From contig NZ_CP147990.1 in the NCBI RefSeq assembly GCF_037902255.1, positions 510,001 through 542,000 of the forward strand: a stretch of DNA of 32,000 bases, written 5' to 3'. The notes beneath the pieces were generated by a model. The model did not search any database. It had not been told where the DNA came from and saw only the letters and a program-made list of their open reading frames with translations. Within the stretch, counting starts at the first letter, position 1. The number at the start of each line of letters is the position of its first letter. This document shows positions 26,940 through 31,513 of the stretch, one piece after another. A program made the translations under genes and the position numbers. This DNA is from Candidatus Electrothrix sp. GW3-4. Its GTDB lineage: Bacteria > Desulfobacterota > Desulfobulbia > Desulfobulbales > Desulfobulbaceae.

Positions 26940-27350
26940 ATGAAAGGTATTATGAGAAGGGTAGCAGTAATGGCTATGTTGCTTTTGTTGCTGACAACGA
27001 ATCTCATCGCGGAAGAGAGCAAGGGAGAAAATGTTATGCCGGATATTGTCGGAAAAACGTATCTGTTTGATTATGGCGAGTATGCGTATGACATCACAAT
27101 AACATCGGATAAATCGCTGCATTGGAAGTTGGTTAAAGGAAGCTTTGAAGGGCCGAGCACAGGAGATAATCCGTATCTGTCCAGTAAAATAGCTGACAAT
27201 GTTCTCTTCATCTCCTGGAAGGAAGAAAGCGGGTATCAGTTTTATAATGTGATGGATTTGAATACCGGGAAGTTGACAACCCATGCTAATGCGGATGGGA
27301 TGTCTATTAATATGGGGAAGGTTTCGTTGTTAGGACAAAAGAATGATTGA
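26940..27350 (+). CDS. Secreted small protein with a possible lipocalin/calycin-like (PadC/MoaF-like) fold
   Basis: GAGG RBS 7 nt upstream of the ATG at 26940. Signal peptide MKGIMRRVAVMAMLLLLLTTNLIA. GKTYLFDYGEYAYDITI.SDKSLHWKLV.G....P...Y.S.KIADNVLFISW.E.SGY resembles the strand pattern of PadC/MoaF-type beta-barrels. The fold call is by recollection only. Confidence 0.6.
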   Translation: MKGIMRRVAVMAMLLLLLTTNLIAEESKGENVMPDIVGKTYLFDYGEYAYDITITSDKSLHWKLVKGSFEGPSTGDNPYLSSKIADNVLFISWKEESGYQFYNVMDLNTGKLTTHANADGMSINMGKVSLLGQKND

Positions 27351-28038
27351 AAATTATACAAAAGAAGTTCTAAACGCAAGAAAGTTTTCAAAACAAAAAA
27401 TTGAGACAGAATATCCTGAAGTTCCTGAAATATTAAGATTTATAGATAACTATTTTGCATCATTGATAAACCGTTTTGAAAATGTTAGTGGAATGGGAGA
27501 AATCAATAATTACAAATTTGCATTGATTGTATCTTTTATAAGAACTCAATTGATTATTAGTGAACATATACTAAATAGTGAATTAATTGAGGTCACAGTT
27601 TTAGAAAGAAAACAAATAGAATTAGTTGCGAGATTATCCGAAATTGATAAAAAAACAAGTAATAAAGAAGGGATCCAAAGATTAAAAGGAAAAACACCAA
27701 ATATTGGTAACGGAAACGTAAGCGATAATTTAAAAAGTATGTACGGAATGTTCTCTGAAATAGCACATTCATCAAAAACAGAACCATTTGCATTATTAGC
27801 AGAAAAACCAAATATTGACACAATTGGATTTAGTGTTTTACCCGAATATGATTCAAAAAATACTATTGTCGCTTTAAATAATCACATCCAAATATTTTTT
27901 GATTTTGTAATTTATATGTTTGCTTTTCAAAATGAACTTATGGAAGATTATAATGATAACCATGATATGGAATTAATAAATAATCTATTAGAATCAGGTA
28001 AACATTCTGGACTTACAGTATTTGACAGATTTAAATAA
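27343..28038 (+). CDS. AT-rich orphan protein, 231 aa, unknown function (predicted helical; possibly Abi/HEPN-like)
   Basis: A long ORF in a region that is strikingly more AT-rich than everything around it. Its start overlaps the upstream stop (ATGATTGA). I recognise no family. Y.MFSEIAHSS and helical R/E-rich segments are only faintly reminiscent of AbiV/DUF5677-type proteins. Confidence 0.6.
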   Translation: MIENYTKEVLNARKFSKQKIETEYPEVPEILRFIDNYFASLINRFENVSGMGEINNYKFALIVSFIRTQLIISEHILNSELIEVTVLERKQIELVARLSEIDKKTSNKEGIQRLKGKTPNIGNGNVSDNLKSMYGMFSEIAHSSKTEPFALLAEKPNIDTIGFSVLPEYDSKNTIVALNNHIQIFFDFVIYMFAFQNELMEDYNDNHDMELINNLLESGKHSGLTVFDRFK

Positions 28039-28437
28039 CGAGTAATGCCAGCACATAACATCTTGTATAAGTAATGGCAGGCGATGTGGTAAATATTAAG
28101 GTTTGTAACCCGCTTATACGGCATAGCGGCTTGATAGGAAAGTACCACGAAGTCTGTGCCACTACTCATACAATTTACCGTTACATACGTCTCAATACTA
28201 CCCTTCGGTATCACACCCCGAAATCAGACCGCGCAACGATGCGGGTTATCGCTCGGGTTGAAGATGCGAATCCCATAGAGTTTTCTACGAGCGAAAAGAA
28301 ACATAACTGTTCTTTTTCTCTTGCAATTACCCGAAACAGGAGCTAATCCTTTAATTCTGTTCAAGGAACGACACTCATCGCTCCTTTTGCAGAAGCAAAA
28401 CCCCGGAGGCGACCAGCAACGGTCTTTTCGCCGGTTC

Positions 28438-28584
28438 AATCAAAACGATTCACACTTAAATCAGAGCAATTTAAATGTGAATCAACACGATGGACACTTC
28501 AATCAGGACGATTTAAATTTAAATCGGGTCAATTTAAACTTCAATCAAGGCGATTTAAGTGTACATCAGGATGATTTAAACGTG
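28438..28584 (+). repeat. Array R: seven contiguous 21-bp direct repeats (consensus AATCA-NNN-CGATTT-AAAYN-TN)
   Basis: The units are AATCAAAACGATTCACACTTA, AATCAGAGCAATTTAAATGTG, AATCAACACGATGGACACTTC, AATCAGGACGATTTAAATTTA, AATCGGGTCAATTTAAACTTC, AATCAAGGCGATTTAAGTGTA and CATCAGGATGATTTAAACGTG. They are exactly head-to-tail with no spacers. Confidence 0.9.
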
Positions 28585-28650
28585 TTACTCTGTAGAGAAA
28601 GAAAGGATATATCAGTATATTGCACGATACAGTGCATGTAGGCAGGATTG

Positions 28651-28860
28651 ATGAGTGTAATGACTGACACTGAAATACGGATGAAGGGGATGCAGGTACT
28701 TGTCAATGCTCTGGGAGAAGTCCATGCTGAAAAATTTATTACGCTGATTTTACGCGAGCCGTTCAATTATACCGAATGGCAGCGGGATCTGTGGAACGAT
28801 AAATCAGTTGAGGAAATCAGCAGAATGGCGATGCAGCATCGCTTGAAGCAAGGCGATTGA
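28651..28860 (+). CDS. Small (69 aa) predicted helical protein of unknown function, lying between the two repeat arrays
   Basis: ATG at 28651, with AGG 4-5 nt upstream. MSVMTDTEIRMKGMQVLVNALGEVHAEKFITLILREPFNYTEWQRDLW...SVEEISRMAMQHR. I recall similar small proteins in toxin-antitoxin-like contexts but cannot name a family. Confidence 0.6.
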   Translation: MSVMTDTEIRMKGMQVLVNALGEVHAEKFITLILREPFNYTEWQRDLWNDKSVEEISRMAMQHRLKQGD

Positions 28861-28877
28861 GGCTTGTTTACCGCTTA

Positions 28878-29045
28878 CATTGATCCAAAGCCAACCGGAA
28901 TCAATACAAAGTCAATTTGAATCACTCCATTTCAAACCGGAATCAAGGCAAAGTCAATTGGAATTGGATCAAAGTAAATTGGAATCAGAGCAATTCTAAT
29001 TTGAATTATCTCAATTCCAGTGTGCATCAGGCCGATTCCGGCGTG
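28878..29045 (+). repeat. Array S: seven contiguous 21-bp direct repeats (28899-29045), paralogous to array R, plus a degenerate unit at 28878-28898
   Basis: The units are AATCAATACAAAGTCAATTTG, AATCACTCCATTTCAAACCGG, AATCAAGGCAAAGTCAATTGG, AATTGGATCAAAGTAAATTGG, AATCAGAGCAATTCTAATTTG, AATTATCTCAATTCCAGTGTG and CATCAGGCCGATTCCGGCGTG. Phase, orientation and the terminal GTGTR-CATCAGG unit match array R. Confidence 0.85.
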
Positions 29046-29140
29046 ATTGGTATCGGAGAGAACAACCAAGCAGGCTCGCTTGAGTGCAACAAAAGCGGAC
29101 AACATATCCTGTCAACCCAACCTCTTTTAACGCTATTCCG

Positions 29141-30439
29141 ATGCTATCAGAAATAGAAATACAAGACTTCAAAAGCTATAAAAAGGCAGCGCTTGCGCTG
29201 TCCCCACTTTCTATTTTGATCGGGGCAAATGCCTCTGGAAAGAGTAACGCGATTGAGGCATTGAGAATCCTGAACTGGATTGCCCAGGGACAAAAACTGA
29301 ATGCTATTAAATATGGTGTCAGTGATTCTGAAGATATTGTTCGAGGCCGTTTGTCCGATTTAGGCCGAGACGGGAACAGCCTGTTTACCTTCCTTTGCCG
29401 AGTAGCCACAACGGAATGGAATTCTCTGCTTATCGAACTCGAATGTCGTGAGAATGAACTGCATATCTCTCAAGAGTACGTTTCCTCTCCAAGCAGCAGC
29501 TTTCCGCTCTATCGTATCAAAGAAGCCAGCAAAGGAGACAGAACAGACGTTGTTGTTGAGTATAATAATTTTGCAAGAGGAGGAAGGAAGCCTGTTATTA
29601 CCTGCATTGATCAAATGGCTGTCTTTGCCCAGTTGGAAACACCTGCCCGTTTTGGCAGCTCGCATAAAAAGGCGCAGGCTGAAATTCCCAAAACGGTTGC
29701 CTTGTATCAAAAACTTCTTTCAAACATTCTCTTCCTTGATCCTGTCCCCTCTCTTATGCGTGAAGACGCGAATCGCCATGAGAAAAAATTGCGTGGAGAT
29801 GGAAAAAATCTTTCAGGTGTCCTTTATACCTTATGCCAAAACAAGGAGCAGAAATTCATCGTTTTGGACCTCATCCGTTCTCTTCCTGAACAGGATATAA
29901 CAGATATAACCTTCCTTGAGGGACGGCGAGGTGATGTCATGGTCGCATTGGTCGAGAGTTTCGGTGGCAAAACAAAATCATGGGATGCGACTCTGCTTTC
30001 TGACGGAACCCTCCGAGTCCTTGCCATTGCTGCCGCGTTACTTTCCGCCCCGGAGGGCTCTCTTGTTGTTGTGGAAGAAGTTGATAATGGAATCCATCCC
30101 AGTCGGGCAAGGCAACTCTTACAAGCAATGCGTGGGCTGGCTGAAAAAAGACAACTGCGTTTGCTGCTGACAACCCATAACCCGGCTCTTATGGACGCCT
30201 TACCTGATGAGGCAATAGGAGACGTTGTTTTTTGTTACCGTAACCCGGAAAATGGGTATAGTGAGCTGAAAAAATTGTCTGCTCTGGTCGATTATCCCTC
30301 TCTTATCGCACAGGGATCTTTAGGTCATCTTGTCACCAATGGGGTCGTTGAGAGATATGCCAAAAGTGATTGTACTCCTGAACAAAAAAAGGAAAAGGCG
30401 TTGGCCTGGCTTGCAGAACTTGATCAGGAGGAAGAATGA
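29141..30439 (+). CDS. ABC/SMC-like AAA_21/AAA_15-type ATPase (432 aa)
   Basis: The N-terminus MLSEIEIQDFKSYKK is typical of this family. Walker A is GANASGKSN, the signature-like motif is LSDGTLRVLAIAAALL, Walker B is LVVVEEVDNGIHPS, and the H-loop is LLLTTHNP. I start at the ATG at 29141; the track's GTG at 29084 adds 19 unlikely residues. Confidence 0.85.
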   Translation: MLSEIEIQDFKSYKKAALALSPLSILIGANASGKSNAIEALRILNWIAQGQKLNAIKYGVSDSEDIVRGRLSDLGRDGNSLFTFLCRVATTEWNSLLIELECRENELHISQEYVSSPSSSFPLYRIKEASKGDRTDVVVEYNNFARGGRKPVITCIDQMAVFAQLETPARFGSSHKKAQAEIPKTVALYQKLLSNILFLDPVPSLMREDANRHEKKLRGDGKNLSGVLYTLCQNKEQKFIVLDLIRSLPEQDITDITFLEGRRGDVMVALVESFGGKTKSWDATLLSDGTLRVLAIAAALLSAPEGSLVVVEEVDNGIHPSRARQLLQAMRGLAEKRQLRLLLTTHNPALMDALPDEAIGDVVFCYRNPENGYSELKKLSALVDYPSLIAQGSLGHLVTNGVVERYAKSDCTPEQKKEKALAWLAELDQEEE

Positions 30440-30890
30440 GTATCTGCATAATAGACACCTCTATTTTTTGCAACATTCTGAAAGCACCTGGGAAAGTCAG
30501 GATTATTCATCTATTATGGACTTGATGAAAGAAAAGATTCAAGGCGGTGAGTCATTGCTTTTTCCTATGACCGCTATTATAGAAACAGGGAATCACATTG
30601 CGCAAAATGGTGACGGAAGCCAGAAACGCTCCTGTGCTGAAAGATTTATAAAGCAGTTACAGGGGGCTATTGCAGGCGAGGCTCCCTGGACACCGATGAA
30701 GCCGTTTGCAATTGAAGAGTTCTTACGTTGGCTGGGTGAATTTCCAGATTACGCGATGAGAGACATTGGGTTCGGCGACCTCTCTATCATCAAAGATTGG
30801 GAAGAACTACGAAGAATTCACTCTGGACAGCGAGTATACATCTGGACGCTTGATAATGATTTGAAGGGGTATGATTATCACCCCGGTTAA
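30436..30890 (+). pseudogene. PIN-like domain protein interrupted by a 1-nt frameshift (or a sequencing error)
   Basis: The ATG at 30436 overlaps the ATPase stop (ATGA). Frame 1 reads MSICIIDTSIFCNILKAPGK and then stops at 30523-30525. The frame shifted by -1 continues from 30495 as SQDYSSIMDLMKEK...AIIETGNHIAQ...VYIWTLDNDL to the stop at 30890. The acidic residues D7, E (IIETG) and D.D (TLDNDL) are placed as in PIN nucleases. Confidence 0.65.
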
Positions 30891-30916: not shown

Positions 30917-31513
30917 ATGGCAAAGGATGATTCAGAAAAAGACAGACAAGCGCGGATTGAGAAATTACAGCGTAAAATTGAAGAACTGACCGGTGGAAAG
31001 CCTGTTTCATTCAGCTCAGAGAACTGTTCGTCGGAACTGAAAGAAAAATTCTTGGAATATGTGCTCACTTTTGAAGAGGGAGAGCATGCTCCGTTATTTG
31101 ATACCCTGACCAATGCCGGTCTGCATCTCCCGGCACCTGATGAGCTGGATGATGGAGCACTCACGGGGAAACTCTGGGAAGTCATTCATGCCCTGGCAAT
31201 GCTCGGAGTTTTTCTCCATAACACAGATCATCTGAATGATCGTGAACTCTATGAGGATCTGTGGCAGGATGCCTTACGGGAAGACTATTTTATTCAACCC
31301 GCGAACAGGGATTTCGCCTGTCATCTTGATATGATCGGCAGCGGAAGCGAGGAAGACCTCTTCATCTTCCTGAAATATTACGCAGACGAAGGAGAGCGGG
31401 AATGGTGGAAGGAAGAGTACCCGCAAGATGATTTTCCGGCTTCTGCACCAAGGCCCTATGATCGTGACCGTCATCTCCCTAAACGGGAGGAATGGGAAGA
31501 AGGCCAGTGTTAA
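30917..31513 (+). CDS. Hypothetical acidic protein, 198 aa, third gene of the ATPase operon
   Basis: Clean ATG ORF 26 nt after the PIN-like gene. N-terminal coiled-coil-like segment, LWEVIHALAMLGVFLHNTDHLNDRELYEDLW core, and a D/E/W-rich C-terminus. I cannot assign a family. Confidence 0.65.
   Translation: MAKDDSEKDRQARIEKLQRKIEELTGGKPVSFSSENCSSELKEKFLEYVLTFEEGEHAPLFDTLTNAGLHLPAPDELDDGALTGKLWEVIHALAMLGVFLHNTDHLNDRELYEDLWQDALREDYFIQPANRDFACHLDMIGSGSEEDLFIFLKYYADEGEREWWKEEYPQDDFPASAPRPYDRDRHLPKREEWEEGQC

Follow-up and report, generated by a model that had tools for sequence, protein, structure and literature searches.

A stretch of 32,000 nucleotides from Candidatus Electrothrix sp. GW3-4 (contig NZ_CP147990.1, positions 510,001 to 542,000; hereafter the window, whose numbering is used throughout) carries two arrays of 21-bp tandem repeats, R and S, on either side of a small gene encoding a protein of 69 amino acids (aa). 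R and S belong to one family of modular, non-coding arrays that vary in copy number from 3 to 14 units. S is tied to the gene in front of it, the small partner in a PIN-type toxin cassette of Ca. Electrothrix-like Desulfobulbaceae, and directly follows its 3' end. Coordinates are collected in Table 1; loci used for comparison carry L numbers and called proteins carry P numbers.

The arrays and the gene between them

Tandem Repeats Finder (TRF) reported a period of 21 at 28438-28581 with 6.9 copies, 64% matches, and 0% indels, and a 42-bp super-period in array R with 80% matches. The same program recovered array S in part only (28886-28964). A repeat search recovered the 21-bp register of both arrays and linked the S units to the R units. 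Self-match at a lag of 21, taken over 126 nt, was 0.643 in R and 0.611 in S vs 0.273 +/- 0.043 (maximum 0.452) in the rest of the window, and the two arrays were the sole blocks of the window with a match above 0.5. Lags of 7, 14, 20, and 22 gave background levels in both arrays (0.26-0.27 at lag 7); because lags 7 and 14 stay at background, the 21-bp unit is not built from heptamers. The earlier note on this DNA had described two strictly periodic arrays here, and TRF and the lag-21 match bear this out. Its counts for the R dyads (three perfect AATC-N5-GATT, four one mismatch off) are correct, as are its distances of 66 nt from R to the ATG at 28651 and 95 nt from S to the ATG at 29141.

The two arrays open and close alike. 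An entry motif, TTT(C/A)(G/C)CCG(G/C)TT (also given as TTT(A/G)CCG.TT), lies 5' of both; its form in R, TCTTTTCGCCGGTTC, is similar to that in S, GGCTTGTTTACCGCTTA. An eighth, degenerate unit at 28878-28898 precedes the seven units of S. The last units are conserved and close with a G+C clamp, and inspection of the sequence verified a common terminal unit pair, ..GTGTA followed by CATCAGGATGATTTAAACGTG in R and ..GTGTG followed by CATCAGGCCGATTCCGGCGTG in S. Entry motif, unit consensus, and terminal units are the same, and R and S are thus paralogous members of one family, as had been proposed. The units of both arrays are contiguous, with no spacers between them; the unique spacers of clustered regularly interspaced short palindromic repeats (CRISPR) are absent, and the arrays are neither CRISPR nor a microsatellite, also as noted earlier.

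Table 1. Features at and beside the repeat arrays of the window
Feature	Coordinates	Strand	Evidence or remark
Conserved non-coding leader, 205-nt	28206..28412	+	In place of PIN gene, 5' of array R
Junction and entry motif of array R (..AACGGTCTTTTCGCCGGTTC)	28413..28437	+	100% identical to L001
Array R, 7 x 21 bp, 42-bp super-period	28438..28584	+	TRF, repeat search, lag match
Flank 3' of array R	28585..28637	+	Present also after R array of L117
PIN toxin gene remnant, last 9 codons (VGRIDECND*)	28638..28664	+	tblastn with L131 and L004 PIN proteins
69-aa gene, presumed antitoxin-like	28651..28860	+	Small downstream partner of PIN gene
Entry motif of array S (GGCTTGTTTACCGCTTA)	28861..28877	+	Directly follows stop codon of 69-aa gene
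Array S, one degenerate unit and 7 x 21 bp	28878..29045	+	TRF, repeat search, lag match
AAA_21 ATPase, PADLOC PDC-M07A	29141..30439	+	PADLOC E = 4.5e-197 over 1-431 of 432; Pfam AAA_21
PDC-M07B gene, apparently frameshifted near 30490	30436..30890	+	PADLOC E = 2.5e-43

The 69-aa protein has 144 homologues, the best of which (97% identical) comes from a cable bacterium of the Desulfobulbaceae, Ca. Electrothrix aestuarii. Searches of Pfam and NCBIfam placed the 69-aa protein in no family. Its AlphaFold (AF2) model is confident and consists of four helices, with a predicted local distance difference test score (pLDDT) of 85, and has no match among solved structures, any DNA-binding fold included. 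Relatives at L003, L004, L131, L135-137, and L139-141 have an upstream gene of ~140-150 aa with weak PIN-domain matches that overlaps the start of the 69-aa gene. The 69-aa gene is accordingly the small, downstream member of a toxin-first PIN cassette. The window has lost the PIN toxin gene, and its 69-aa gene is now an orphan; a remnant of the former still overlaps the start of the latter. A GTAGG junction lies directly upstream of this remnant, and a similar one is seen in L138 and L117. The intact order of PIN gene, small gene, and array is present in L131 and L127. The PIN partner of L127 is 41% identical to the PIN protein of L131, and no BLASTP similarity was found between the small protein of the L127/L126 type and the 69-aa family.

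Distribution and modular structure of the arrays

Array S is on the strand of the 69-aa gene, with 17 nt between the stop codon and the first unit. Five sampled loci (the window, L001, L134, L131, and L138) encode a protein with 87% identity or more, and in each of them an S-type array was found 3' of the gene. L001 has 12 S units and, as in the window, a leader and array R upstream; L131 has ~14 units behind an intact PIN gene; L138 has ~12 units, with a BrnT-like toxin gene and a small open reading frame (ORF) upstream; and in L134, where Lamassu-like genes lie upstream, the contig ends inside the array. No array was found in the sampled loci whose protein is 84% identical or less (L132/133, L135-137, L004, L139-141, L003). 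This division between the two groups of loci indicates that the array was gained once and is dispensable for the protein family. An S-type array also stands behind the different small protein of L127 (13 units) and L126 (3 units), and the sequence immediately before the L127 array retains a likeness to the 3'-terminal part of the 69-aa gene. From these sequences, it is suggested that the array has moved between cassettes by recombination. The entry motif GGCTTGTTTACCGCTTA is kept in L001, L134, L131, L138, L127, L126, L128, and L130, and S-type unit counts range from 3 to 14 across loci. Compared with L001, the window shows one indel per array, of 42 bp in R and 105 bp in S, with flanks that are 98-100% identical. 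Size differences between relatives are whole units, and small indels were not seen. Arrays at homologous loci share the period but differ in their number of units, a point which the earlier note had raised as a question.

The genes that follow S differ between loci. Other genes are found there in L127, L131, and L138, and L001, which is syntenic with the window, retains only the last 375 bp of the ATPase gene and has a FitA/PIN pair instead. The earlier note had read the locus as 'array-gene, array-operon', with S as the 5' element of an operon headed by the ATPase gene. This reading is abandoned here, since S is a 3' appendage of the 69-aa gene; the link between S and the ATPase is likewise given up in view of the other genes after S and the ATPase remnant of L001.

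Array R has a different upstream context. The leader aligns with copies in L125 (L125:1007-1210), L126 (L126:2439-2648), L117 (L117:2696-2898), and L001 (L001:3586-3795), with 1-nt indels and no conserved ORF. It starts with GGTATCAC and has the invariant core GAAAAGAAACATAAC..TCTTGCAATT..GAGCTAATCCTTT.ATTCTGTTCAA. No Rfam match was obtained for the leader, which could be a promoter-bearing repeat, a 5' untranslated region element, or a small RNA. A consensus fold of the leader contained few compensatory pairs and was unconvincing. A tRNA-like reading of its TTCGAAT motif was rejected by inspection, and ARAGORN finds no tRNA in the window. The leader is accompanied by an R array in L001 and L117, occurs without an array in front of a lipoprotein gene in L125, and precedes the small gene in L126, where only the last PIN codons are left. 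The window leader is 84% identical to that of L125 and 74-77% identical to that of the syntenic L001, whereas L001 matches the window at 98-100% identity between the R junction and the end of the 69-aa gene. With the leader nearer to L125 and the rest nearer to L001, the locus is a recombination mosaic. The R junction resembles the segment 3' of the small gene's stop codon in L127, in L131, and at S in the window, as if it were the 3' junction of another such cassette. R belongs to the S family as its second array and is joined to the leader, which replaced the PIN gene. L117 contains the leader, 13 R units, and the post-R flank up to the first bases of the PIN remnant, with a threonine-synthase-like gene ending nearby, and is a truncated copy of the same leader/R module elsewhere in a genome. 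R unit counts are 5 in L001, 7 in the window, 11 at P0124, and 13 in L117.

Members of the family also occur outside these cassettes. Two short metagenomic contigs, L128 and L130, have 12-14 units of the same consensus together with the entry motif ..TTTACCGCTTG, and their flanks are unrelated. A genome scan with the pattern AATC-N4-CRA, three times at 21-bp spacing, is loose and returned at least 120 loci, mostly unrelated 21-bp arrays; L117 is the sole clear relative among the scan matches listed. A position weight matrix scan recovered two loci of the Pyrinomonadaceae (Acidobacteriota), L109 and L092, among these loci. Their arrays are intergenic and lie beside large perfect palindromes, with no toxin-antitoxin genes nearby. 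The L109 unit, AATCGGGACGATTCAAATCAG, has the family consensus at 11 of the 13 positions that the search pattern leaves free, and L092 matches the consensus more loosely. Judged by this likeness, L109 is a probable and L092 a possible relative of the array family. The palindromes immediately 5' of the two arrays (L109:1290-1420 and L092:560-740) are perfect, very long (~100-170 nt), and similar to repetitive extragenic palindromes (REP). Further 21-bp arrays were seen in the Bacillaceae loci L074, L011, L037, and L023, where a conserved block of 13 nt (AATCRTGCCAATT or similar) is followed by 8 variable nt; these loci carry several arrays each, on both strands. Two scans of viral contigs gave no match to the unit pair or the leader core. 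Rfam returned nothing at gathering thresholds, and at E <= 10 only chance miRNA-hairpin models. A literature search found no paper on these 21-bp repeats.

Repeats with a period of 21 could in principle be translated. The AAT-CAN frame, which reads N-Q-x-D-L-N-L, runs without a stop across R and most of S in the window (ORFs 28321-28641 and 28917-29156), as arrays that encode heptad-repeat peptides would require. It is broken by stops in L128, L130, L131, L092, and the first S unit, and it has no conserved start codon. The other frames are interrupted too in most arrays, several of which have stops in every frame, and the variable unit positions (6-8 and 18-21) are not third codon positions. 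Only four called ORFs overlap such arrays in protein collections of billions of proteins. Searches of protein space gave 3 matches for the N-Q frame and none for the S-G-R-F-K frame, and an HMMER scan of representative proteins gave 12 matches, with P0124 alone a true relative. P0122 and P0123 cannot be translated from their own contigs with the standard code, which has TGA where the called proteins have W. A coding role, which the earlier note had named beforehand as an outcome that would overturn its proposal, is excluded by the in-frame stops in relatives, and the chance that the arrays encode heptad peptides is practically nil. Public annotations over the arrays (P0121-P0124, heptad N-Q-rich proteins among them) are spurious, as is a gene of 69 aa called on the minus strand of L001 (L001:4273-4482).

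Downstream of S, the ATPase gene and the gene that follows it are adjacent and form the PADLOC candidate defence system PDC-M07. The earlier note had regarded the ATPase architecture as novel; the pair is already catalogued under this name. A literature search found no paper on PDC-M07. The start codon of the B gene overlaps the ATPase stop as ATGA; the gene reads MSICIIDTSIFCNILK.. and then stops, and its remainder is in the 30330-30890 frame. When the two parts are stitched, the PADLOC profile scores 184 bits over 3-158 of 161 vs 146 bits unstitched. The frameshift could reflect a pseudogene or a sequencing error. PDC-M07B matches Pfam PIN_12 at E = 0.15 only, and its N-terminus, MSICIIDTSIF, reads like a PIN beta1-Asp motif. 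The ATPase pair looks like a neighbour outside the repeat module, its adjacency incidental. Further 3', an acidic ORF of 198 aa at 30917-31513 has no Pfam, NCBIfam, or PADLOC match and is missing from L001 along with PDC-M07B. Upstream of the repeat module, a 231-aa ORF at 27343-28038 has no family match and a G+C content of 31.6% vs about 45-55% elsewhere in the window; L001 has a different 317-aa gene in its place. It was probably acquired as cargo of a variable islet that separates the MoaF-like gene from the repeat module.

Unit anatomy and possible roles

The consensus of 86 units, AATCRGGNCRATTYAARYKTR, is a pseudo-palindrome, and the arrays consequently score on both strands. Information per position ranges from 0.05 bits at position 8 to 1.8 bits at position 2. 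Positions 6-8 and 18-21 are free and others are constrained, and the conserved blocks AATCR and CRATT form a dyad around a free centre. The A/T-rich arm of the unit is nearly self-complementary. The 8-nt arm comes in three types within one array (CACACTTA, TAAGTGTG, and TAAATTTA). Each 21-nt unit can be drawn as an 8-bp stem with a purine-/G-rich loop of 5 nt (loop consensus RGGNC), and the array ends (..CCGGAATC and GATTCCGG..) are inverted repeats able to pair with each other. Against dinucleotide shuffles, nine of ten arrays folded with z-scores of -2.6 to -14, and the window arrays folded with short flanks gave z -2.2 to -5.3. The palindromy is real and may be read as RNA, single-stranded DNA, or duplex DNA. 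Motifs for IHF, H-NS, CsrA (CAGGAUG), and GANTC, sought by eye, were found in a minority of units only or were off by one position, and were discarded.

The best guess, held tentatively and as possible rather than probable, is a modular extragenic repeat like bacterial interspersed mosaic elements (BIME) or BOX elements that is co-transcribed as a multi-hairpin 3' trailer. The array would be transcribed together with the gene in front, each 21-nt unit would form its stem and G-rich loop, and the array ends would pair. The expected effect of such a trailer is to stabilise the distal, antitoxin-like part of the transcript or to terminate it. For a toxin-first operon, protection of the distal antitoxin message would raise the antitoxin-to-toxin ratio. 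This reading is favoured because of the position after the stop codon, the shared strand, the pairable modular ends, and the lack of a binder gene that co-occurs with the arrays.

Several observations weigh against a transcribed trailer. Folding of the antisense strand equals or exceeds that of the sense strand, with no consistent strand preference, and because both strands fold alike the palindromy could be a property of the DNA. The asymmetry of G-U vs A-C pairs is mixed, and covariation is weak, with 2 of 16 arm positions exceeding shuffles. In ~45% of units, positions 4 and 10, which form the innermost pair of the stem, are mismatched as C-A on the sense strand; position 10 is A in about half of all units. 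Complementarity between neighbouring units is no better than in shuffled unit order in any array. No promoter or terminator signal stands out around the arrays in the window. The apparent rarity of the element (the four called ORFs above) is unlike REP or BOX elements, and no array was found outside the targeted loci in ~45 kb of related DNA, with one locus in the 32-kb window. In addition, the strict phase of 21 bp, or two helical turns, and the sequence-conserved dyad core fit protein binding at least equally well.

The last point leads to the view that the arrays are binding sites in DNA of the operator, centromere, or iteron kind, which is rather unlikely but a serious rival, close behind the trailer. 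A dimer would recognise AATCR-N3-YGATT on one helix face and coat the array cooperatively; the binder could be the 69-aa protein, a complex of PIN protein and partner, or a host factor encoded elsewhere. The period is exact and free of small indels even though units differ by ~35%, and the conserved positions make up a dyad with a free centre. The lack of compensatory covariation and of strand bias is as expected of double-stranded sites. An array-gene-array layout is also known from mini-F (ori2-repE-incC) and pB171 (parC1-parAB-parC2). The predicted curvature would be in phase as well. Evidence on the binder points the other way, since no locally encoded protein co-occurs with the arrays across loci. 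The earlier note had named the 69-aa protein as the obvious candidate, a proposal that the comparison of loci and the model do not support. Arrays occur without the gene in L117, L127, L126, L128, L130, and the look-alikes L109 and L092; the gene occurs without arrays in L003, L004, L132, L135-137, and L139-141; and the four-helix model matches no solved DNA-binding fold. Gene calls in the related loci examined and among the ORFs adjacent to arrays included no Rep or Par genes. Furthermore, the array of intact cassettes lies downstream of the operon and not at its promoter, and with an arm of three types only ~9 bp per unit are constant.

Curvature itself had been offered earlier as a role, with phased bends tuning two promoters. 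A simple wedge model predicts a coherent curvature of ~160 degrees over 147 bp, each array lying above the 99th percentile of the window, and the curvature raised in the earlier note is upheld to this extent. The bend follows from the period, because any array of 21-bp period accumulates it in phase. Promoter-like sites are not enriched, and S is an appendage of the gene before it, with unrelated genes after it in other loci. Tuning of promoters by curvature is accordingly rated very improbable. The highest curvature predicted by the same model in the window lies at ~23599 and ~18666 and exceeds that of the arrays.

The position of the array immediately 3' of the PIN operon and in the same orientation, together with hairpin-prone units and their RGGNC loops, is also what would be expected of an RNA decoy or type III-like antitoxin. 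The 21-nt hairpin RNA would be bound or cut by the PIN RNase of the cassette or by PDC-M07B, whose N-terminus is PIN-like, which would give the toxin-antitoxin module an RNA layer; a transcribed repeat RNA had been raised in the earlier note. This is improbable. Arrays are kept where the PIN gene is gone (the window, L001, L134, L138, and L126), and most operons of PIN and 69-aa genes have no array. Pfam and PADLOC scans found no toxin of the ToxN, AbiQ, CptN, or TenpN type, and Rfam no family match. The unit is 21 nt and not 34-45 nt, and the array comes after the genes and not in front of a toxin gene.

The arrays might also have no role at all. A neutral or selfish minisatellite that arose once behind the 69-aa gene, spreads by recombination, and shifts in size by slippage would account for the narrow and patchy distribution (all sampled loci at or above 87% identity, none of those at or below 84%), the very variable copy number, the persistence of arrays beside decayed cassettes, and the small number of called ORFs over such arrays. 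It is rather unlikely but, like the binding array, a serious rival. The units are old and divergent (~64% matches) yet keep a position-specific pattern and an exact phase, from which constraint is inferred. Moreover, the entry motif and consensus recur in unrelated flanks, in L128 and L130 and probably in the Pyrinomonadaceae loci L109 and L092. The kept pattern and this recurrence together argue for either constraint or an active spreading mechanism. A more speculative proposal, for which the chances are slim, is that the 21-nt unit is a recognition module for a trans-acting factor common to several phyla and that the arrays are sponges or landing pads for it. As sponges, RNA hairpins with RGGNC loops may titrate an RNA-binding protein or the PIN RNase and so form a third, RNA component of the cassette. 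As landing pads, phased DNA arrays may load a conserved protein. A factor of this kind would explain why the same consensus, entry motif, and period are found behind unrelated genes in the Desulfobulbaceae and apparently in the Acidobacteriota.

Relation to known repeats and significance

Clusters of REP and BIME are known from enterobacteria and pseudomonads. Like the arrays, they are short imperfect palindromes (20-40 bp) in tandem clusters, placed just after stop codons in or at the end of operons. They are also hairpin-prone on both strands and variable in unit number, and have been proposed to protect the upstream mRNA. The pseudo-palindromic 21-bp units, found 17 nt past a stop codon and folding with z -2.6 to -14, agree with this structural plan. 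The arrays differ in their 21-bp units set in strict head-to-tail phase with no linkers, and in having the conserved tetranucleotide AATC/GATT and no GTAG motif, which marks REP and BIME along with an associated RAYT (TnpA-REP) gene. REP and BIME reach hundreds of copies per genome, of which the DNA scanned here shows no sign, and within the sampled clade the present element accompanies a single gene family. In Streptococcus pneumoniae, BOX elements with the structure boxA-(boxB)n-boxC are likewise intergenic, non-coding, and structure-forming; as in the arrays, their terminal modules are conserved and the tandem units between them vary in number (3-14 here). They have no evident sequence relation to the arrays, their internal unit is 45 bp vs 21 bp, and the arrays are apparently low-copy and belong to a different phylum.

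Iteron and centromere arrays include the seven 22-bp iterons of R6K, ori2-repE-incC of mini-F, the 20-bp repeats of pSK41 parC, and parC1/parC2 of pB171. The likeness lies in tandem repeats of ~20-22 bp at two helical turns, dyad units, and two arrays that flank a small gene, and the strict 21-bp period with 0% indels falls within the ~17-22 bp in helical phase that is typical of this kind. The present locus differs in its chromosomal setting and in the absence of a Rep, ParA, ParM, or ParR gene. The flanked gene encodes a toxin-antitoxin partner of 69 aa, and arrays and gene are not consistently together; with no Rep/Par genes and a gene that is separable from the arrays, a cognate binder is not evident. 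Type III toxin-antitoxin systems (ToxI, CptI, TenpI, and antiQ) are similar in having tandem repeats beside an RNase-type toxin module. Their repeats are 34-45 nt long and lie upstream of a gene for a ToxN/AbiQ-family toxin with a terminator between, and none of these features is found here.

The nearest described phenomenon in similar organisms is the TAACTGA heptamer of Beggiatoaceae. These direct repeats are intergenic and have been reported from Beggiatoaceae, Cyanobacteria, and Bacteroidetes, with 169 sets per genome, mostly just upstream of start codons (PMC4679880). They have no known function; that a post-transcriptional regulator binds them is one proposal (PMC4679880). They share with the arrays a non-coding, tandem direct repeat in filamentous sulfur-cycling bacteria and a patchy occurrence across phyla; the arrays differ in a 21-nt period with no 7-nt sub-period, a position 3' of stop codons, and their rarity.

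The arrays are placed among bacterial extragenic repeat elements, as a variant of these. The PDC-M07 pair is now separated from the repeats, and the 'array-operon' architecture should not be propagated. If the element is a lineage-specific extragenic repeat only, it explains the spurious heptad 'proteins' in annotations, marks a recombination-prone islet of toxin-antitoxin and defence genes in cable-bacterium genomes, and offers a copy-number-variable marker for telling strains apart. If conservation and phase reflect a trans-acting partner, the arrays would be an undescribed cis element on a toxin-first PIN cassette and a way for operons to favour the distal antitoxin. They would then also provide a case of repeat-mediated control in organisms not yet in pure culture.

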